Shown one piece after another: positions 1-59,643 of a stretch of 64,000 nucleotides of DNA (position 1 is its first letter; each line of letters starts with the position of its first letter). Source of the stretch: a phage; NCBI GenBank assembly GCA_024449565.1, contig GCA_024449565.1_4810.1, one strand, 5' to 3'. Position numbers and translations under genes: made by a program. The notes below the pieces were generated by a model. It made no database searches. It worked only from the letters and a program-made list of their open reading frames with translations, and had not been told where the DNA came from.

Positions 1-55
1 AAAAAAAATAAAATTAAATTAGATATATAATTTTAAATTAATTTATTTGAATTCC
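1..55. other. AT-rich tract preceding repeat element A (possible DNA-unwinding element)
   Basis: Positions 1-55 are almost entirely A/T; a similar AT-rich tract precedes the second copy of the element near 14900-14960. Confidence 0.35.
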
Positions 56-150
56 TATAAAGTATCGCGGCAACGCGTATCATCCGTATCATCCGTAAGA
101 TTCTTTTGAAAACAACTACTTACTTGATACGGATGATACGTCATTATACG
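56..150. repeat. Iteron-like repeat element A
   Basis: TATAAAGTATCGCGGCAACGCGTATCATCCGTATCATCCGTAAGA (tandem CGTATCATC) followed by inverted copy TACGGATGATACG and CGTCATTATACG; near-identical element at about 14962-15090. Confidence 0.6.
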
Positions 151-184: not shown

Positions 185-322
185 TCAGTGAATATTAAAA
201 AGCACTCCAGCAACTAAAACGCCAATCAGCATTGAGTCATAAACAGCCCATTTCCAAGAAAGCAAAGAGTTGCAATTAATATTTCGCACTTTAACATAAC
301 GTGACTGAATAATCTTTTGCAT
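185..322 (-). CDS. small hydrophobic protein (45 aa, below the ORF-track cutoff)
   Basis: ATG at 322 preceded by AAAGAGGAAG Shine-Dalgarno; translation MQKIIQSRYVKVRNINCNSLLSWKWAVYDSMLIGVLVAGVLFNIH with hydrophobic C-terminus. Confidence 0.35.
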   Translation of the reverse strand: MQKIIQSRYVKVRNINCNSLLSWKWAVYDSMLIGVLVAGVLFNIH

Positions 323-394
323 AACTTCCTCTTTAGTTCATATCAAATTAATAATTGCACAGTTTAAATTGCGCTTATTTACAACTATCTTAAT

Positions 395-1246
395 TCAGAT
401 AATTGGTATTTTCCTGCACTTGCAGTGTATTGCCCATCCAGGAGGACCGATGTCACCCTTTTTGAACTTAAGTTCTCCACCTACTTCCCATAAGCGTTTG
501 TCATCAAGCTTGAATCTCATGCCGTCGACGTGCTCATGTGATATTCGCGGCTCTTTGCCTGCTCCTGAATGCGCCCACTCAAATTCCTCAACGCCATTCT
601 GTCGCATTCTTTCATCACTTAATACGCAATAAAGTTTGCTCGTTTGGTCTTTGGCGATAAGGTCTACGCGTTTTGCAGAGAAGTGTTTTACATTCCTTAA
701 TGCCGCCTGAATGCCGGACGTGCCTTGCTGGGCTGGGTCAGGCGAAGTCAGCGAAAGCATGACTGCTTCGTACACTCTGTTGTGAATATCCTCGCCGACC
801 TTAGTAACTAGAGTCGTGTTAAACGTCTCGCTTGTTCTAAGAGTGTTCTCAACGAATTTGTTATATGTGGCCTTTGGCGCTTCTATGCCTGCGGACTTAA
901 GGCTTGCGAATGTAGCAGAAGTCGCACCCTTTTCAACTGACTTGATGAAATCTGCGGCGATCTTTGACCCGACACGTGCGAATGCCTTTGCCCATTTCAG
1001 TTGAAGTCGCTTCATCAAGGTCTGAAAAGTTGAATCAGCAGAGTCTTGCGCAAAGAACTTTTTCACCTGCTTCTTTTCAAGCCATTCTGCAATTCCTTCT
1101 TGATAATCATCAATCATCGCATAGCAAAGACCTTTCATCTCACGACGATAGGCCATCGCAATAGCGTTGGATGGGATTATCGGACTGCCGCGCCCGATTC
1201 TATCGGGTGAGCGGCGTTCACGTTTTTTCGAAGCTTTAAAAGCCAT
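395..1246 (-). CDS. head morphogenesis protein (Mu F / SPP1 gp7-like)
   Basis: Immediately downstream of portal; C-terminal HCKC motif resembling the NCRC signature of the Mu F family; start trimmed to ATG MAFKASKK at 1246. Confidence 0.65.
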   Translation of the reverse strand: MAFKASKKRERRSPDRIGRGSPIIPSNAIAMAYRREMKGLCYAMIDDYQEGIAEWLEKKQVKKFFAQDSADSTFQTLMKRLQLKWAKAFARVGSKIAADFIKSVEKGATSATFASLKSAGIEAPKATYNKFVENTLRTSETFNTTLVTKVGEDIHNRVYEAVMLSLTSPDPAQQGTSGIQAALRNVKHFSAKRVDLIAKDQTSKLYCVLSDERMRQNGVEEFEWAHSGAGKEPRISHEHVDGMRFKLDDKRLWEVGGELKFKKGDIGPPGWAIHCKCRKIPII

Positions 1247-11059: not shown

Positions 11060-11062
11060 GCC

Positions 11063-11134
11063 TGCCGCGCAGGAGTGTACTGCCGCGCAGGAGTGTACTG
11101 CCGCGCAGGAGTGTACTGCCGCGCAGGAGTGTAC
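11063..11134. repeat. perfect tandem repeat, 4 x 18 bp (TGCCGCGCAGGAGTGTAC)
   Basis: Four identical head-to-tail units read directly from the sequence; a partial fifth unit follows. Confidence 0.9.
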
Positions 11135-11755
11135 TGCAAATTTCCTGTGGGTACAAAATAGTACGGTACTGTCTAGGACTTTTTCTTTGAAAAGTTAGTG
11201 GACCAAATGTGTCGTATTTTGATTAGTGTACCGCAAATTCCATCAAGTAGCAAAACGCACCAAAAGACCCATGCCCTAAAAACCACACGAACGCAATAAT
11301 CAATCGCCGTTACAGTTTCCAGCGTTACAATTAGAAAGCGAATGATTCGATGCATAATAATATGAAGCATAATGATTCGAAAGCTAATGGTTGCGCGTAG
11401 GATGATATCGGGAGGGATTATTCGAGATGCGTGTAATTTCGCATGCGTACTATTTTCGGGCGAAGGGTCGGCATATTCTTCGTTTTAGCTCGGAACGAAG
11501 GGAAAGTTTTGCGCCTTTATAAAACAACGACTTACGCGACCCGCCTTAACGGTCCGATATAGGTGTCTATATAAAACAAGGACTTACGCGATGTTCTCCA
11601 TTTAACGTAATACCTGTTATGCGAACTAAGGCGCATCTCGACGAAGATTGTGCGACGACGAAGGGAAGGATAAAGGAGTTTTCGCGTAGGAGCTCATCGA
11701 GATAGGGACGAAGAAAAGCCGCGACTAAGCGCGGCCTATTAGTAACGGAAGGGTA

Positions 11756-12046
11756 TTATAAGGAGACGATTTTAAAGAAAGAGTAACGGCCTTCGCCTTC
11801 GGATACCGCGATATATTCGCCGCCGAACTCCGTAGCAAAATAAACCTTGCCTTCGATAGTAACGCGGAAGGTAGAAATATCTTCCTCTTCGAGTTCCGTA
11901 AATTCGCTAAAATCGATAGGACTATGAAGCTCCTCGATAGTCGCATCTACGTTAAAGAGATAAACGTTTTTAAGTTTTTCGCCAAATACGTTAGAGTTTT
12001 CGGAAGTTTCGACGCGAGCGGAACGGATAGCGGCCAAAGTAATCAT
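11756..12046 (-). CDS. small acidic protein, paralog family member 1
   Basis: AGGAGA SD; 96 aa, acidic; N-terminus MITLAAIRSARVE and NVDATIEE resemble those of the 12682 and 12154 genes. Confidence 0.5.
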   Translation of the reverse strand: MITLAAIRSARVETSENSNVFGEKLKNVYLFNVDATIEELHSPIDFSEFTELEEEDISTFRVTIEGKVYFATEFGGEYIAVSEGEGRYSFFKIVSL

Positions 12047-12153
12047 AATATTCTCCTAGTTAGTCGGGAGGGTAGCGACCTATTCGCTACCTCATCCCCT
12101 CTCGATATAAAACATTATAGTCTTAGTGTACGAAGAAGTAAAGCACTTTTTCG

Positions 12154-12456
12154 TTATTCTGCGATAAAATATTTATAAGCTTTATCGCCTTCTACGTCGA
12201 TATACTCGACGATAATTAACGCTTCGCCGCGCGGCGTAACCGTCTCGATAAGGGTAACGGCTTCGTCGTCGGTCTTCGCGAAGCGGATTGCGCTACGTTC
12301 GGCGTACTTAATATCATCGAAGGAAAGGCCGACGAAAGCGACCGCGCGGACCTTAATAATGGTAGATTCTAGTTCCGCGTTAACGGCAGCGATAAGAGAG
12401 CGAACGGTTAAACGGTCTTCGTCGTAAGTAAGGATAGAAGAGATTAAAGTAGTCAT
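12154..12456 (-). CDS. small acidic protein, paralog family member 2
   Basis: Start trimmed to ATG MTTLISS with GGGAG SD; same N-terminal pattern as neighbours. Confidence 0.45.
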   Translation of the reverse strand: MTTLISSILTYDEDRLTVRSLIAAVNAELESTIIKVRAVAFVGLSFDDIKYAERSAIRFAKTDDEAVTLIETVTPRGEALIIVEYIDVEGDKAYKYFIAE

Positions 12457-12681
12457 AATAAAACTCCCGATGCTAGTAGAAGGAAGGGCCATCACCCGTC
12501 TCGATACAAACAAGTATACGCGAGTGTACGAAGAAGTAAAGAAAAAAGATAAAATAATTTATCTCATTTTTATCGAAAAAGTGCTTTACTTTTTTCTACA
12601 CTATATTATAATGTACTCATATCGGGACGGGATGAGTTAACGAATAGGTCGTTAACGCCCGTCGAGAACTAGGAGTTTAAA

Positions 12682-12966
12682 ATGGCTATTCTTAACGTTT
12701 CTTCCATCCGTAACGCTATCGTCGAGAACTACGGCGTAAAACAAATTTTATCCGAAGTTTACGCCGCGAACGTAGACCAAACTATCGAGGCGGGTGGGGT
12801 AACGGTCGCCGAGGCTTTTAAACTTTACGCGGCGCTACCGGAATCGGACCGCGAAGCCTTCGAAGTAAACGTTAACGGATACTTCTTCGAAGCGGTCGAA
12901 ATCGGTAACATCTTACTCGTTATGGGCGAAGAAGAATTTGATACCTTCTCCCTCGTCGAAGCGTAA
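12682..12966 (+). CDS. small acidic protein, paralog family member 3
   Basis: AGGAG SD; MAILNVSSIRNAIVE and NVDQTIEA shared with the 11756 gene. Confidence 0.5.
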   Translation: MAILNVSSIRNAIVENYGVKQILSEVYAANVDQTIEAGGVTVAEAFKLYAALPESDREAFEVNVNGYFFEAVEIGNILLVMGEEEFDTFSLVEA

Positions 12967-13046
12967 GAGAGGATTTTTAGAGCGTCGTGCGCGGCGCTTT
13001 AATAAAATTCTTTCGCGCCTAGCGCCCTAACAAATAGGAGTTCATT

Positions 13047-13673
13047 ATGGTTAGCTTAAATCGTTTCTCGACTAGCGGCGACGTTATCGCAACTAAGACC
13101 GCCGACCTCGTTGCATTTTATAATGCAAATTCAGGTTCGAAGCCGATTAAAAAATTTGCGGACCGCCGGACCGCCGAGACTCGCGTAATCGCGCTAATCG
13201 AGTCCTTAAACGCGCTCGATGAGCCGTCCAACGAATCGCCAATCCCCGACGCGAAGCCGCGCGAGGAAGTGTCCAGCGATGTAAAAACGCATAAGGCGCG
13301 TGCGGTCGTTAAAAAGGCAGAGCCGACGCAGGAAGAACTCGACGCGATGAGCGATGAAGAGTATGAAGCCTTCGTTAAGAGCGGCTTAAACGATAGTGCA
13401 AATTGCGTAGTGCAAAATGGAACTCCTTCCCATCGCCGTTCGAATAGCGAAGGTATTGCAAAAAGTTGGGACAATAAGGAAGTGGCGCAAAAGCGTCTCA
13501 CCCGTAACGGCGTTATGGTCGAGGGTGTAGGAGAGTTCAAATCGGTCCGCGCAGCTTTCGCCGCGCTGGGATTACCGGATAGCAAGCACATTCGCTTCCG
13601 TATGAAGCTTAAGGAAGCTGGGCGCTTGAACTTCGAGTTCGGCAACAAGTCCTTTACCTTCCAGATTATCTAA
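13047..13673 (+). CDS. hypothetical protein
   Basis: AGGAG SD; 208 aa; contains two in-frame copies of the TAGTGCAAA(A)T motif. Confidence 0.5.
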   Translation: MVSLNRFSTSGDVIATKTADLVAFYNANSGSKPIKKFADRRTAETRVIALIESLNALDEPSNESPIPDAKPREEVSSDVKTHKARAVVKKAEPTQEELDAMSDEEYEAFVKSGLNDSANCVVQNGTPSHRRSNSEGIAKSWDNKEVAQKRLTRNGVMVEGVGEFKSVRAAFAALGLPDSKHIRFRMKLKEAGRLNFEFGNKSFTFQII

Positions 13674-13723
13674 TCGAATGGCGGCCCTTCGGGGTCGCTT
13701 TTCATAGTGCAAATTGGTGGCTT

Positions 13724-13987
13724 ATGAATACGCTTATTCTCATCGCTACGTTGTCCATCGGAAGTGGTCGCACCTTATCCCTTTATGACCATAGTGCAAA
13801 TTGCGCCTATCCTACGCGCGTTGCGGCGATAGTTAATAGTGCAAATAAGATGCTATTCGAGACTTGCTGGAGGGTCGATAACGAGAAAGGTCGGGTAGTC
13901 TTAGGCTATAGTGCAAATCTGCTGGTGGAGTCGTTCGATTGGACGGTTGAAGGTCGTAAATTGTTACGTAAAGTGACTAAAAGATGA
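13724..13987 (+). CDS. hypothetical protein (questionable; ORF spans three motif copies)
   Basis: ORF with GGTGG upstream, but three ATAGTGCAAAT copies fall in-frame inside it, so coding status is uncertain. Confidence 0.3.
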   Translation: MNTLILIATLSIGSGRTLSLYDHSANCAYPTRVAAIVNSANKMLFETCWRVDNEKGRVVLGYSANLLVESFDWTVEGRKLLRKVTKR

Positions 13988-14101
13988 CTTATAATAATAC
14001 ACTTTCTAACGCGTTTATGGTTACAACCTTCCCCGTCGTATTACCGATGGCCCTAGAAGTGGAGAAAATGTGTTCTAGGGCCGTTTTATAGTGCAAATTG
14101 G

Positions 14102-14575
14102 CTAGTGGCGGGAGAATTGCTCTCCTTCTTTGGCCGCCTCTCCAAAATCCTTGTAGAAATCATCCATGGAACGGCCCATTTTACTATTGCCATTTTCATC
14201 AATCATCGTGATGCCGTAGATGATATTCAGTTCACGAATGGCATTAAGTTTGGCTGATGCCGCGACTTCTGGATCACGCACAAGCTTCACTAGATTGTGG
14301 ATGGAACTCTTTACGCTCCACAATTCCTTCAATGGCATCTCTTCCATACGCTTTTTGTAGCGCATCTTGTAGTACGGATTGCGCTGAGTGCACAGGATTC
14401 GCTGGCCAGTGTAGTTATCGGTCGCAACCTCCATGCCAAATACTAGTGCAAAAGCTGCGCGCATGTCATGGCCTTGAATAACAAGGTCAATGAACTCATC
14501 GAATAATGCCTGATTATGCTCTGCAAATCGCGGGTCTTCAAAGTCTTCAGGCATTGCTACATAATCTTGACTCAT
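14102..14575 (-). CDS. hypothetical protein (possible HTH DNA-binding; small-terminase-like is speculative)
   Basis: Start trimmed to ATG MSQDYVA; the start codon lies inside a motif copy; helix-rich N-terminal segment FIDLVIQGHDMRAAFALVFG. Confidence 0.4.
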   Translation of the reverse strand: MSQDYVAMPEDFEDPRFAEHNQALFDEFIDLVIQGHDMRAAFALVFGMEVATDNYTGQRILCTQRNPYYKMRYKKRMEEMPLKELWSVKSSIHNLVKLVRDPEVAASAKLNAIRELNIIYGITMIDENGNSKMGRSMDDFYKDFGEAAKEGEQFSRH

Positions 14576-14802
14576 AGTGCAAATCCCATAGTGCAAATTA
14601 ATAGTGTGAATTATACAATGAATGAACATTATATTCAAGTGCAGATTGATGTTCAAATTGGCTGTAAACGTACATAAATCATAGTGCTAAATGAATAGCG
14701 GACCGTGATGCGTGGTGTACTGTTTGATACGTATAAAAGAAATCCATCCCTTTCGCCGCTTGCTATGCAAATCAATGACTTAGCCGCTGCTGGCTGGTTG
14801 AA

Positions 14803-15090
14803 GCGTATCATGACGTATCATCCGTATTGCCGCAAGTCTTTGTTTTTACTTATATCTTACGGATAATACGTATAAATATAAGTTCAGTATAAGTATGAGG
14901 ATGTAGAAAAAAATTAATTTAAATTAATTCAAAATGGAGTTAATTGTTTTTTTCAAAGTTGTATAAAGTATAGCGGCGACGCGTATCATCCGTATCATCC
15001 GTAAGATGTACCATTGAACCCAGTCGCGGCGCACCATAGAAGTGTGTGGAGTGAACTACGGATAGGTCCAAATCTTACGTCATTATACGT
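14803..15090. repeat. Iteron-like repeat region B (homolog of element A)
   Basis: GCGTATCATGACGTATCATCCGTATTGCCGCAAG, inverted TTACGGATAATACG, then TATAAAGTATAGCGGCGACGCGTATCATCCGTATCATCCGTAAGATG (near-identical to 56-100) and CGTCATTATACG; AT-rich tract at about 14897-14961. Confidence 0.6.
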
Positions 15091-15374
15091 TTAAATTCTA
15101 TGCGTAAGGTTAGCCAGCTAACTATATCTCCTTTTTAATTTCAAGCGGCAATCCCAGAGACGGCGCACCATGTACACAAACACACCACGGTACACGCTCC
15201 AATTCCTAGTGATTTCCTCTCCAATCCCACAACACCACAGTACAATAATCTTCCAAAACCGCACACATATTCAAGACGCAAAATTCACGTCACAATCCTC
15301 ACTACCAACGACACTCTAATAGATTTACACAAATCAATCGATTTATCCGATAATAAAGACTCACATTCCACAGG

Positions 15375-15399
15375 CAAATAAAAAGGGCCAATCGGCCCT
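15375..15399 (-). terminator. rho-independent terminator (minus strand)
   Basis: GGGCC-AATC-GGCCC hairpin with T-run on the minus strand, directly after the stop of the 15417 gene. Confidence 0.55.
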
Positions 15400-15416
15400 C
15401 TTAACATTAATCATAA

Positions 15417-23364: not shown

Positions 23365-24012
23365 TTATCCTGTGGCCTGCATATTGCGTACATACTTCTG
23401 CTCTAATGAATAGATGAAGTCGGCGACAGTCAATCCCTTCGTGTGCCATTCATACATGGTGAAGCCTGTATTCAGGAAATAGCCGCGCACTTTATCCATT
23501 GCTTCAGCTTCCTCCATTGAAGCCATCAGCGCGGCGACGTTGTCATAAGAAGGCACAAATCCCTTCTTGCGTAGCGCATTGCGCAAATCTTTAGTTCTGA
23601 ATCCAATCTTGCAAGGGTCATCACGACCAGTAGATGATGCAACCTTTGGTAGCGCAAGGAACTCTTTAAGGAACATTGCAATGTTCAAGTCGCCTGCGTC
23701 ATCAAGCTTCTGGATTCGGTTGCGACCGCGACCCTTGAATTCACTTGCGCGAGGGTGAGTGCCAAAACAGTGCGCACCTTCCAGTTTAGGGTCGATGATC
23801 ATTACATCTTTACCAATGCGCAGCTCTACGTAGTAAAGATAAGACTCATCGACAAGCTTTGTACGCTTGCAAGTGATTGAGTCCTTATCATAACCAAAGC
23901 CACGCAACACGGTTGAAATCATCCGGTTCATTTCTTCGCCGTGAACATCACTTTCTTTGTTCAGTTCACCAAGATGTTGAAAGAATTTAGCGATGTTGAT
24001 TGCTTTATTCAT
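23365..24012 (-). CDS. hypothetical protein
   Basis: 215-aa ORF adjacent to the VirE-like gene. Confidence 0.45.
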   Translation of the reverse strand: MNKAINIAKFFQHLGELNKESDVHGEEMNRMISTVLRGFGYDKDSITCKRTKLVDESYLYYVELRIGKDVMIIDPKLEGAHCFGTHPRASEFKGRGRNRIQKLDDAGDLNIAMFLKEFLALPKVASSTGRDDPCKIGFRTKDLRNALRKKGFVPSYDNVAALMASMEEAEAMDKVRGYFLNTGFTMYEWHTKGLTVADFIYSLEQKYVRNMQATG

Positions 24013-25682
24013 CAGAATTCATCCTTATCTCTTCCCAAAGAACGTTTACGTTCAATAACCTTCTTCAAGAACTCAATATCTTCAGGGTCAGACTCATCGC
24101 GGATAAGATACGCTAAGATGGTCATCAAGTCAGAAATGTATTCCCCTGCTTCATTCTTAATCAGCGGCGTAAAGTAACCGCGCTGGTTGCGATAGGTCGC
24201 AGGTTCAAAGCCAAGCTTTGACATGTGCGGCGCAAGGGTACGAGAGAAAGGCGACTTGCCGCACTTCGCTCTGAATCCCATAGCGATAGCACCACTGGTA
24301 ATGTGCCAGCGTCCGCTGTGATGTCGGTCATAAGGCGCGGTGATGACGACTTCAACAAGGTCGTTGTCAACCATCTCATCACGGATAACGCCTCGCGCAC
24401 GTTCCATTTCATTCTTGCTGAACTCAGTAAGCATGCGAGATGTTTCACCAACAAACGCGTTATAGCCTGCTTCGCCGTGCTTCTCCATCCACGCAGCACA
24501 CTCAGCCATCAACTGCCAAACGTCTTCTTTCAAAGTAGAAAGGTCAGCTTGGAAGTCTTTCGACCAGTTCGGTTGCCCGTCCTTATCAGCGAGTTGGCCA
24601 ACAAAGATAGGATACACACGACGGTTGCCTGTGTCATCACGTTGCATGCCTGCGTATTCGTTGCCGTCCATGATAGCAATCCACTGGCGTGGTTTCACCT
24701 GCGTATCTTCAAATTTGAAGTCCAGGTCGTCTTCCGTCTTAGTCAGGAATGCTTTCATGTTTTCGATGTCGGCCTTTTTAAAGCCTGTCATCTCGCCGAC
24801 GTTCGCGATAATTGAGCGACCCGTAATAGCTCGCAAGAACGGGTTGAAGTTCTGCGCGGCTAAGTTCAACGGAATCGGTGTTGCGTGGCGGTCGTTCATA
24901 ATAGCTTCGCAAAGCAGCTTGCTAAAATAACTCTTGCCTGCGTTCTGGCCGCCGATGAGCGCGATGGAGATTGGCGCTTGACAGCCAGGGTTGGTCAGGC
25001 GGTTGTAGAGCGATAGCCAAAAATACACACCGATTTGTCGGTTTAACTCTGTATCGAACGGTCGGAATAGCTCGATAAGGTATTTCTCGATGCGCGCAGT
25101 ACCGTCCCATTCAGGCAGCTTCTTGTAGAAGAAGTCCATCAGGTCGTCACGCTGATAACGCATGGCCCATTCCTTATAGGATTGAGCGACCTGACGTGAG
25201 TTTGGGTTGGACAGTCCTGCTGCGTCGACAGCGGCAACTATCTCTGTGACTTCTAAGGTACGGTCAGTGAATGTTTCGCCGCGATGGTCGACTAAGCGCC
25301 CACGAAAAGTATCTTTGTGAGGGAATGGAACAACGCCACTTCCCTTATCAAACAACGCGTCGAAAACCGCATAACGGTTCATGTCACTTGTCCGGTCTGC
25401 CTGTAGAACGAAGTCATCTTTGGTCGGCTTGTAGTGAGGGAACTTGATTACCTGAAGTGAGGCGAGCAAGCGTGCTCTTTCAACCAAGTCTTCTTCACCG
25501 TAGCATTCCATGCGCTCTGAATCTTTTTCAACGGCTTTATGTTGAAGGCTGATTTTAGCTCTGGTGCCTTGCTGCTCTGCTGCCTGCATTTCTTCCGAAA
25601 CGCCTGCATCTTGAATTTCGTCAAAGATTGCACCAAATTCATCACCTGTATCCTCTGGAAGATTGTCATTATTAATTGACAT
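24012..25682 (-). CDS. VirE-like / P4-type primase-associated P-loop ATPase (putative replicative helicase)
   Basis: Walker A IGGQNAGKSYFSKLL; 556 aa; adjacent to primase-polymerase-like gene. Confidence 0.55.
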   Translation of the reverse strand: MSINNDNLPEDTGDEFGAIFDEIQDAGVSEEMQAAEQQGTRAKISLQHKAVEKDSERMECYGEEDLVERARLLASLQVIKFPHYKPTKDDFVLQADRTSDMNRYAVFDALFDKGSGVVPFPHKDTFRGRLVDHRGETFTDRTLEVTEIVAAVDAAGLSNPNSRQVAQSYKEWAMRYQRDDLMDFFYKKLPEWDGTARIEKYLIELFRPFDTELNRQIGVYFWLSLYNRLTNPGCQAPISIALIGGQNAGKSYFSKLLCEAIMNDRHATPIPLNLAAQNFNPFLRAITGRSIIANVGEMTGFKKADIENMKAFLTKTEDDLDFKFEDTQVKPRQWIAIMDGNEYAGMQRDDTGNRRVYPIFVGQLADKDGQPNWSKDFQADLSTLKEDVWQLMAECAAWMEKHGEAGYNAFVGETSRMLTEFSKNEMERARGVIRDEMVDNDLVEVVITAPYDRHHSGRWHITSGAIAMGFRAKCGKSPFSRTLAPHMSKLGFEPATYRNQRGYFTPLIKNEAGEYISDLMTILAYLIRDESDPEDIEFLKKVIERKRSLGRDKDEF

Positions 25683-26991: not shown

Positions 26992-28074
26992 CTATTTTAT
27001 GCCACCTGCACGACGATTTATCATGTCAAGTTGATTCTCAATATAAGGCATGACGATTGCTTCAACAAAAGCAGTCCAACCTTTCTTGCCTTCCCCTTTC
27101 CGGTGACAGTCGTGGGCGCAACCGAACACAAACTCATGTTCTGCACCAGGAATAGGGCCGCGAAAGTAAGCGCCATACGGGTCGCCGTTGGTGTGTTCTT
27201 CACCCCAAGGACAGATTATGCGGCACTTGCCTGACATGTTCTCGATGACGTCGCCATCAGACCCTTCACCCATTTTGTTGCGCGATAGAATCTGCTGGGC
27301 TATTTTATACCAAACAGCATCATACTTGTATTCATCGACGTCAATTTGAATCTCACGCTTTTGCGGCATGACGACGTGAAAGCCAAATGCCTGACAAATG
27401 TCTTCGATGGTGTAGCGCAATGAGTAGTCTGCATGGACAAGTCGGCAGCGGAACGGGTCGCCGTTCTCATCGACATATTTATAGGGGCCGTCGTGAGTCA
27501 CACGCTTGTTGTTGATGCACCCAGGAACACGGCCCACGCGCGTTACGTCTTTAATCGTGTTGTCGCCGCCCTTCTTGAGTACCATGTTAACGAAAGACCC
27601 AAGGAACGCTTTGAACTGAATAAGATGGTCAATCGGTTCTTTAAAGAAGTACCAAAGCTGGTGGTTGTTCGGTGAAGTCTCGACGATGACAGTCGGCTTC
27701 AGTCGCTCAAAAAAGAATTCCAAATCTAAATCGCCTTTGGACCCTTTACCGTGACCGATGTCGTCGACCATCATCGCCATGCCATGGCCAAAGGCCGACT
27801 CTGTACGCCAGTATCGCATCTCACCCGTCTTTGGGTTGGGAGACTTACGCATTGAACTTATGCAGGCGTAACCGTTCTGATGTTGCATCAGCGGCTTTCC
27901 CAACTTCCAAGGCTTAGGCCAGAAGCTACTGTTAATCTTCTTGCCGCGCTCGTCAGTCTGCACCGTTGCTTCAGGCGCAAACACCGTCATGACGCGCTCA
28001 TCTTCTGGAATGCCTCTTTGGAGTTCTGTTAAAAACTCTTCGATTATTTTTGCTTCTTCTCTTAAACTAGCCAT
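26992..28074 (-). CDS. primase-polymerase-like protein with C-terminal Cys/His cluster
   Basis: 360 aa; acidic MMVDDIGHG segment and CRIICPWGEEH ... FGCAHDCH cluster; sits beside the VirE-like ATPase. Confidence 0.45.
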   Translation of the reverse strand: MASLREEAKIIEEFLTELQRGIPEDERVMTVFAPEATVQTDERGKKINSSFWPKPWKLGKPLMQHQNGYACISSMRKSPNPKTGEMRYWRTESAFGHGMAMMVDDIGHGKGSKGDLDLEFFFERLKPTVIVETSPNNHQLWYFFKEPIDHLIQFKAFLGSFVNMVLKKGGDNTIKDVTRVGRVPGCINNKRVTHDGPYKYVDENGDPFRCRLVHADYSLRYTIEDICQAFGFHVVMPQKREIQIDVDEYKYDAVWYKIAQQILSRNKMGEGSDGDVIENMSGKCRIICPWGEEHTNGDPYGAYFRGPIPGAEHEFVFGCAHDCHRKGEGKKGWTAFVEAIVMPYIENQLDMINRRAGGIK

Positions 28075-59287: not shown

Positions 59288-59643
59288 TATTGATTACTCA
59301 CCTTTATACGTTCGCCATAAATAGTCACCACTTCAGCGGTGAATCCAAGAATACCGTTTTGGATGGTGACAGTCAATGAGTCGATTCCGGCAACGTCTGC
59401 TTTCTTCAGAATAGCATCTGCAATCGACTTTCTCGCACCGTCTTCATCAACGGGCGATTTGAAAACAGTGCCCAAATAATCGACTCCGTTTTCAACATCG
59501 TACAAGTCTTCACCAAGTCGCATTTGATGCGCCGCCTTGATAACTTGTACCATGGCCTTTTCTCCTGACAGAATATTCAAATTTCTTCCATCAGGCAGAA
59601 ACAGGTCATTGTTATCATTAACTTCAATCGTTAGAGTTGTCAA
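59287..59643 (-). CDS. hypothetical tail protein
   Basis: Tiled ORF within the tail module. Confidence 0.4.
   Translation of the reverse strand: MTTLTIEVNDNNDLFLPDGRNLNILSGEKAMVQVIKAAHQMRLGEDLYDVENGVDYLGTVFKSPVDEDGARKSIADAILKKADVAGIDSLTVTIQNGILGFTAEVVTIYGERIKVSNQ

Follow-up and report, generated by a model that had tools for sequence, protein, structure and literature searches.

The 64 000-nucleotide stretch of phage DNA analysed here (contig GCA_024449565.1_4810.1, referred to below as the window) contains two paralogous sites of about 300 bp, elements A and B, each of which is roughly twofold symmetric, with an AT-rich core between copies of the unit CGTATCATC that are in tandem to one side of it and inverted to the other. 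That B is the concatemer junction and the left end of the packaged genome is well supported by the ends of related genome records. With moderate confidence, drawing on sequence, structural models and analogy, we propose that the units are read by a helicase of the type of the Rep proteins of Staphylococcus aureus pathogenicity islands (SaPIs), so that A and B would both be origins and B would also be the packaging start. The window is from a Wifcevirus, a PB1-like Escherichia coli myophage; its first 6 kb match 29 Wifcevirus records, including ECML-117, FEC19, WFH and Mansfield, at 94–96% identity. The relatives of this genus are PB1-like myophages of E. coli and Shigella with genomes of 66–72 kb (PMC11990801).

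Positions 1–150 of the window hold only the right half of A, while a complete B is present at 14 800–15 090. An initial annotation made from the letters alone had given the first element as 1–150; the element is real, but that description of it was incomplete, as its left half precedes the window start and is seen in relatives. The right part of the AT-rich core of A occupies positions 1–55 (65/80 A+T; invariant in seven Wifcevirus sequences). The rest of the core and the left arm precede the window start, and their leftward continuation was read in the Mansfield locus (11870–12000), where the core goes on and is followed by TACGGATGATACGGATGATACGGATAC, which is the inverse of the right array, and then by a strong hairpin pair. 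To the right of the core, on the plus strand, are the box TATAAAGTATCGCGGCAACG (56–75), which the A–B alignment also places in B at 14962–14981 (repeat family D3), and an inner array of two CGTATCATC units and the partial unit CGTAAGAT (76–101), which is near-invariant in seven genomes, with one substitution in Mansfield. The inverted units GATACGGATGATACG and the box TACGTCATTATACG follow on the minus strand (126–150) and form a long inverted repeat with 76–90 (families D8, I3 and I17).

In B the left arm consists of the outer units CGTATCATG and ACGTATCATCCGTA (14804–14826, plus strand), which are invariant in four genomes and in WFC, and of the inner inverted unit CTTACGGATAATACG (14856–14870, minus strand). 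The AT-rich core follows at 14871–14961 and includes the richest 80 bp of the 64 kb (66/80). The right arm comprises the box TATAAAGTATAGCGGCGACG, two CGTATCATC units and CGTAAGAT (14962–15007, plus strand) and, further out, the degenerate inverted unit CTACGGATAGG with the box TACGTCATTATACG (15056–15089, minus strand), which has weak hairpin potential (z = −0.7). The stretch at 14803–14880 had been described initially as an extra partial copy; the sequence is indeed there, but it is not extra, being the second arm of B across the AT core. We note that the 200 bp with the fewest G in the window (13) fall in the interval between B and the upstream terminator (15100–15400). The composition of this tract, though not its sequence, is retained in WFC, Ab27 and MTx, in which the standard strand is GT-rich before the cut and CA-rich after it.

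The remaining structural claims of the initial annotation held up well. The near-identical cores that it had placed in 56–150 and about 14962–15090, with tandem units, correspond to 56–101 and 14962–15007, which share 46 nucleotides with two mismatches and the CGTATCATC pairs, as part of a 66-nucleotide repeat with 85% identity (family D3). Inverted unit copies are present at 126–140, 14856–14870 and 15056–15066, and TACGTCATTATACG at 137–150 and 15076–15089 (family D8), as had been reported. The AT-rich tracts noted before each core (1–55 and about 14871–14961) are two of the three AT-richest 80 bp windows, which start at 14888 (66/80), 1 (65/80) and 12543 (65/80). Exact CGTATCATC occurs six times in the 64 kb, only at the A and B loci (76, 85, 132 on the minus strand, 14814, 14982 and 14991), and allowing up to one mismatch gives 24 matches, compared with 13.0 ± 4.1 in shuffled sequences, none of which reached 24. 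The local alignment of full A with full B has z = 28.7 against dinucleotide shuffles. The search for further copies that had been suggested was run, and it found no third copy of the element in the window or in the remaining 4 kb or so of the genome outside it.

A is the better preserved of the two copies. It has eight or nine units in total, among them three to the left of the core and two and a partial one to the right, in opposite orientation and about 98 bp apart, while B has five or six, with two on the right and one inverted inner unit and two outer units on the left. Folded as single-stranded DNA, the arm of A at 70–152 reaches −19.5 kcal/mol (z = −7.0) and its second arm −12.3 kcal/mol (z = −6.1), whereas the arms of B fold weakly (z = −0.7 and −1.8). 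Neither element has the form of a classical plasmid or lambda iteron origin, with direct repeats of 17–22 bp in helical phase and often DnaA boxes; the units here are 9 bp long with a spacing of 9 bp, and they flank the core in inverted orientation. GCGGC(A/G)A boxes are also present in A and B (six of 63 copies), a motif that is common in coding DNA and too short to judge.

The virion left end falls between 14935 and 14936, within the AT core of B, in two independent records. The Mansfield record starts at the left end predicted by PhageTerm, which was also the source of its terminal repeat (PMC6753283); its first base is window 14935 and its last is 14936. WFH was assembled independently with a 3.7 kb repeat at both ends (PMC6563267). 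Position 1 of WFH is the same nucleotide as the Mansfield start, and its internal junction holds an intact element. The right repeat boundary, GGGTCTTT/TGGTGCG (the stroke marking the boundary; window 11263/11262), is likewise identical in the two phages. As both boundaries agree, the direct terminal repeat is 11263–14935 (3,673 bp, minus strand), running in the standard orientation from 14935 down to 11263, so that the left arm of B is inside the repeat and the TATAAAGTATAGCGGCGACG arm is outside it. The suggestion that the elements might be packaging signals thus stands for B, with the virion end in its core, but not for A, at which no end has been reported and which lacks a cut motif.

That motif, TTCAAAATGGAGTTAA (16 bp; 14928–14943, minus strand), spans the virion left end and is unique in the window; no copy was found in A at up to three mismatches, and no record places a physical end there. 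It is kept with one mismatch in WFC and exactly in a relative with a 75%-identical helicase, in which the flanks have diverged. The cut site lies 360 bp upstream of the gene of the small terminase, TerS (14102–14656, minus strand; open from 14656 with a likely start codon at 14575), which is annotated in Mansfield and matches the TerS of PDB entry 7UXE by phmmer (E = 1.1e-32). Between the two, a 52-residue open reading frame (ORF; Mansfield gp001, 14653–14811, minus strand) starts within a repeat unit of the left arm of B and overlaps the sigma-70-like sites before TerS, and may be a spurious call. The right boundary is without CGTATCATC units and bears GAATCATT-type repeats instead. These precede the boundary (window 11262–11400; locus L006, 7020–7169), and the same motif family is found at the right repeat end of Kyle; it may be a separate right-end signal kept across genera.

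Several other features of the terminal repeat and its surroundings deserve mention. An 18 bp tandem repeat, CTGCCGCGCAGGAGTGTA, with 3.3 copies at 11062–11151, lies about 110–200 bp beyond the right end of the repeat and is present as a single copy in WFH and Mansfield. Within the repeat, a 33-nucleotide inverted repeat (12124–12156 and 12571–12603; 88% complementary) brackets an ORF at 12154–12513 on the minus strand. ATAGTGCAAAT boxes occur there at 13393, 13907, 14087 and 14574, and three copies are found just upstream of TerS in the relative with the 75%-identical helicase (locus L017, 15190–15220); these boxes may be promoter or operator sites. Protection of the ends by Chi is unsupported: one correctly oriented Chi is found at 13921, and the three Chi sites in the window are not above chance. 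In Kyle there are two CCACCAGC sites, the complement of Chi, in the first 330 nucleotides.

The A–B pair is found at the same two syntenic places, on both sides of the cut, in five genera: Wifcevirus, Kylevirus, Pbunavirus, Myosmarvirus and Bcepfunavirus. The z values of the A–B local alignments are 29 for Wifcevirus, 36 for Pantoea phage Kyle, 43 for Serratia phage MTx, 42 for Pseudomonas phage Ab27 and 31 for Burkholderia phage BcepF1. In Kyle, MTx and Ab27 the records start at a spot syntenic to the cut in B, with TerS homologues 350–600 bp from the record start, and the sequences to either side of the genome end align collinearly with part of the long gap that lies upstream of the gene for the head protease. 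The PhageTerm terminal repeat of MTx is 3,566 bp. The TerS homologue of BcepF1, directly after the element, is unannotated (EF153632.1, 20088–20543, minus strand; tblastn E = 3e-26); small ORFs, gp058–gp061, were called on the opposite strand at this locus (L022) instead.

The repeat unit itself differs between the genera, being CGTATCATC in the Wifcevirus studied here, GGTTATTT in Kylevirus (Kyle), GGTAATTT in Pbunavirus (Ab27), ACTTTTCG in Myosmarvirus (MTx) and TAACTA in Bcepfunavirus (BcepF1). Since both copies change their unit in step, genus by genus, a single lineage-specific protein probably reads A and B, and the view that the two are functional paralogues sharing such a reader is well supported by these comparisons. 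In Pbunavirus the site syntenic to B is a pac site or fixed end, on which two studies agree. Essoh et al. reported a single fixed read end and set nucleotide 1 of Ab27 there, and Ipoutcha et al. placed the pac site of JG024 at 59,376, backed by a pac fragment. By arithmetic, and assuming no insertions or deletions, that position, 317 bp beyond a terminator common to JG024 and Ab27, corresponds to nucleotide 1 of Ab27.

Both elements appear to be under purifying selection. In seven Wifcevirus sequences, about 100 columns of the core and inner arrays of A contain a single substitution, which is in Mansfield, and the neighbouring coding DNA is 94–96% identical; B has 97–99% identity among four genomes. 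In the divergent WFC lineage, B is largely rewritten where it extends beyond the terminal repeat, yet it retains ATCCGTATCATCCGTAAGAT, TTACGGATAG, a copy of GACGTATCATGACG and the cut motif. The near-invariance of A and the retention of units and cut motif in WFC are what lead us to this view.

The candidate reader of the units is a SaPI-Rep-type (VapE-like) helicase of 556 residues (24012–25682, minus strand; PF05272, E = 1.6e-28). It matches PDB entry 7PDS, the Rep1 protein of SaPI1 bound to DNA, with E = 4e-11 as a single sequence and E = 2.8e-23 with a profile of 33 homologues. An AlphaFold model of the helicase (pLDDT 85.8) matches all six Rep1 chains of 7PDS in Foldseek (E = 1.6e-16, about 480 columns, target TM-score 0.61); as Rep1 has about 450 residues, the alignment spans nearly its full length. 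Residues 436–504 of the model follow the order alpha–beta–alpha–alpha–beta–beta of a winged helix (pLDDT 83–92), so that a C-terminal winged-helix DNA-binding domain is predicted. Of the folded parts of the family, this C-terminal segment has diverged most, with 25% mean identity compared with 58% for the ATPase. The replication module that contains the helicase also encodes a RepB'-type primase (26992–28074, minus strand; Pfam PF16793, E = 4.6e-36). In the closest divergent relative the helicase is 75% and TerS 69.5% identical; the two have diverged alike, and their covariation with the units does not discriminate between them as reader.

The Reps of SaPIs are self-loading initiator-helicases in which a C-terminal winged helix reads short lineage-specific iterons, and their origins carry 6–12 short iterons placed directly 3' of rep and arranged around an AT-rich centre, each side holding two or more of them in opposite orientation, where two hexamers are thought to load, one at either side of this centre (PMC9371898). 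Both A and B have at least two units on each side of an AT-rich centre, in opposite orientation. In Ab27, MTx and BcepF1, moreover, B starts 230–370 bp 3' of the helicase operon; insertions of accessory ORFs separate the two in Wifcevirus and Kyle. Taken together, the Rep homologue and the SaPI-like arrangement of iterons and AT-rich DNA suggest that A and B most probably serve as two origins, with B also being the packaging start. The initial annotation had called the architecture that of an origin, and that part of it gains indirect support from the Rep1 homologue, the SaPI-like layout and the position of B 3' of the helicase in three of the five genera; it gains nothing from GC skew, since GC and AT skew are uninformative as origin indicators in the window.

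Under this proposal the arms of A and B would be iterons bound by the winged-helix domain of the phage helicase, hexamers of which would load to the left and right of the AT core, which melts easily, and the RepB'-type primase and a DnaE-type polymerase would then begin bidirectional synthesis. B, as an origin, would also have become the packaging-initiation site. Terminase cuts the left end at 14935/14936 within the core of B, starting the 3,673 bp terminal repeat; A would be left uncut because it is without the cut motif.

A number of observations weigh against the origin proposal. GC skew tracks transcription and gene orientation, with extremes at 14.1 and 28.4 kb and no switch at A, and in Pbunavirus the skew minima fall inside the replication genes. 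Here small ORFs spanning about 9 kb separate B from the helicase gene, and the distance to A is far greater, so that an origin directly 3' of rep is not what is seen; the helicase adjoins B in only three of the five genera, while TerS adjoins it in all five. The 9 bp unit is longer than the 5–6 bp iterons of SaPIs. In the core of A, conservation is base for base; this goes beyond the need of a simple unwinding element and may point to a promoter or some other specific site, and a sigma-70 promoter has been predicted in the A core of JG024. A packaging cut inside an origin would also be unusual.

One alternative is that the arms are arrays bound by TerS, B being a pac site of the SPP1/P1 type, contacted to the left and right of the cut, and A a second, uncut pac-like site, used for example in pairing of the T4 twin-ring style or in holding terminase near the head genes. 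The cut in the core of B, the TerS gene directly after B in each of the five genera, and the direct orientation of A and B around the TerS, TerL and portal genes are all in keeping with such arrays, as are the higher-order oligomers reported for E217 TerS and the two apposed pac sites of the T4 model. However, arms made for terminase would mean that the better copy is the pac site and that A is cut; the units of A are more numerous and better arranged than those of B, yet no record or study puts an end at A. The shared arms do not include the conserved cut motif, and A is without it. E217 TerS, a homologue of the protein encoded here (E = 1e-32), is described in the literature as having no appreciable DNA binding in vitro, and a conserved second pac-like site has a precedent only in T4. 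In our view this explanation is rather unlikely.

We regard it as quite unlikely that A and B are the regulatory regions of two late operons (TerS, and protease–scaffold–capsid), with promoters or UP elements in the core and the units as operators for a phage transcription factor. Each element does precede a co-oriented late operon, conservation of the core is base for base, and a sigma-70 promoter in the A core of JG024 and PB1, together with conserved AT-rich intergenic boxes, has been noted in the literature. In Wifcevirus, though, the consensus-like promoters are downstream of the shared parts and not inside them: no consensus sigma-70 promoter was found in the shared parts of A and B, which contain one weak 9/12 site, the 10/12 matches being downstream. 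Sigma-70-like sites are present at 14656–14610, upstream of TerS. The regions upstream of TerL and portal are without units, and a symmetric 300 bp layout with 5–9 units would be unusual for an operator. A non-functional duplication that gene conversion keeps alike, or a small mobile inverted-repeat element present twice, could account for the near-identical stretches and for the inverted ends of each copy, but we reject this explanation as extremely unlikely: five genera, with proteins no more than 30–45% identical, have the elements at the same pair of syntenic positions, the elements are more conserved than the neighbouring genes, and no further copies exist in the window or the Mansfield locus.

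Returning to the two-origin proposal, one extension of it is distinctly improbable. Origin and packaging site could be mechanistically coupled, with the terminase cut sitting in the unwinding core of a Rep-type origin, so that helicase loading at B would drive strand-displacement synthesis that duplicates the 3.7 kb repeat up to the GAATCATT right-end signal; A would then be the main origin or a cis partner resembling P4 crr. Such coupling, if true, would be a new way of making long direct terminal repeats and could explain why PB1-like relatives switch between headful and exact-end packaging.

The genes flanking A and B are all on the minus strand. Element A occupies a gap of about 416 bp between a 45-residue ORF (Mansfield gp027; 185–322, minus strand), which in the direction of transcription is the final gene ahead of A, and the head maturation protease gene, the first of the operon for scaffold, capsid and tail. 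B is found between the early/replication block's terminator (about 15380–15400) and the TerS gene, and the two elements in direct orientation bracket the TerS, TerL and portal genes. Directly beside A, at 323–394, the source phage is without a 'head fiber' gene of about 920 bp (Mansfield gp026, WFH gp023) that all 29 related records carry; window 340 to 395 corresponds to Mansfield locus 12339 to 13260. No match to Rfam families or tRNA models was obtained anywhere in the window.

On the circular map about 3,966 bp fall outside the window, with window 64000 at Mansfield locus 8034 and window 2 at 12001. We considered whether the window start might mark a physical end at A and rejected this. 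Among all 31-mers of the window, on both strands, the one at position 1 comes first in lexicographic order, so that a start inside A reflects an assembler convention for circular contigs. A 68.5 kb IMG/VR contig ends at the equivalent of window 101, which would fit a terminal overlap of about 100 nucleotides (unconfirmed) and is a matter of assembler behaviour.

The PB1-like phages, Pbunavirus and Wifcevirus among them, are among the phages most used in therapy, and the published accounts of their packaging contradict each other. The analysis provides two precise candidate origins, a candidate initiator in the Rep-type helicase and an exact cut motif, and the conserved pair makes the start of replication, recognition by terminase and formation of the 3.7 kb repeat directly testable. 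Genome engineering and rebooting are also affected, because both A and B must stay intact. No description of the A/B pair or of a link to Rep was found in the literature searched.

Comparison with known systems indicates partial likenesses to several of them. In phage P4 short iterons, direct and inverted, form two separate clusters, ori and crr, which are kilobases apart and are read by the alpha primase-helicase; only ori fires and crr acts in cis. To our knowledge neither is a packaging site. A and B resemble them as two separate iteron clusters with a candidate reader of the same broad class, although no primase fusion of the P4 type was found in the source phage. T7 has repeat arrays next to its terminal repeat, and its secondary origins (phiOL, phiOR) depend on promoters for the phage RNA polymerase; the origin-like AT-rich element and short repeat arrays by the terminal-repeat boundary described here are similar, but we know of no internal paralogue of the junction in T7. 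The pac sites of SPP1 (pacL, pacC and pacR) and P1 have repeated contacts flanking the site of the first terminase cut, by or in the terminase genes, and we know of no second conserved pac copy elsewhere in either genome. B alone is like these sites, with repeats on both sides of a cut next to a terminase gene; unlike them, the Wifcevirus cut sets a precise boundary of a terminal repeat.

The SPP1 pac arrangement is also covered in PMC9611059, as is the 'twin-ring pac synapsis' of T4 gp16, which involves homologous sites in genes 16 and 19. The T4 sites differ from A and B in being short and within coding sequence (PMC9611059), but they are likewise homologous, in direct orientation and bracket the large terminase gene. 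The SaPI origins differ in other respects: the phage has two copies per genome, 15–20 kb apart, one of them holding the packaging cut, its units are 9 bp and not 5–6 bp long, and B is 9 kb from the helicase gene in the window. As in the SaPIs, however, A and B have short lineage-specific iterons in opposite orientation around an AT-rich centre, B is 3' of a rep-type gene in three of the five genera, and the phage helicase is a homologue of Rep1 in sequence and in full-length predicted structure, with a divergent predicted C-terminal winged helix.
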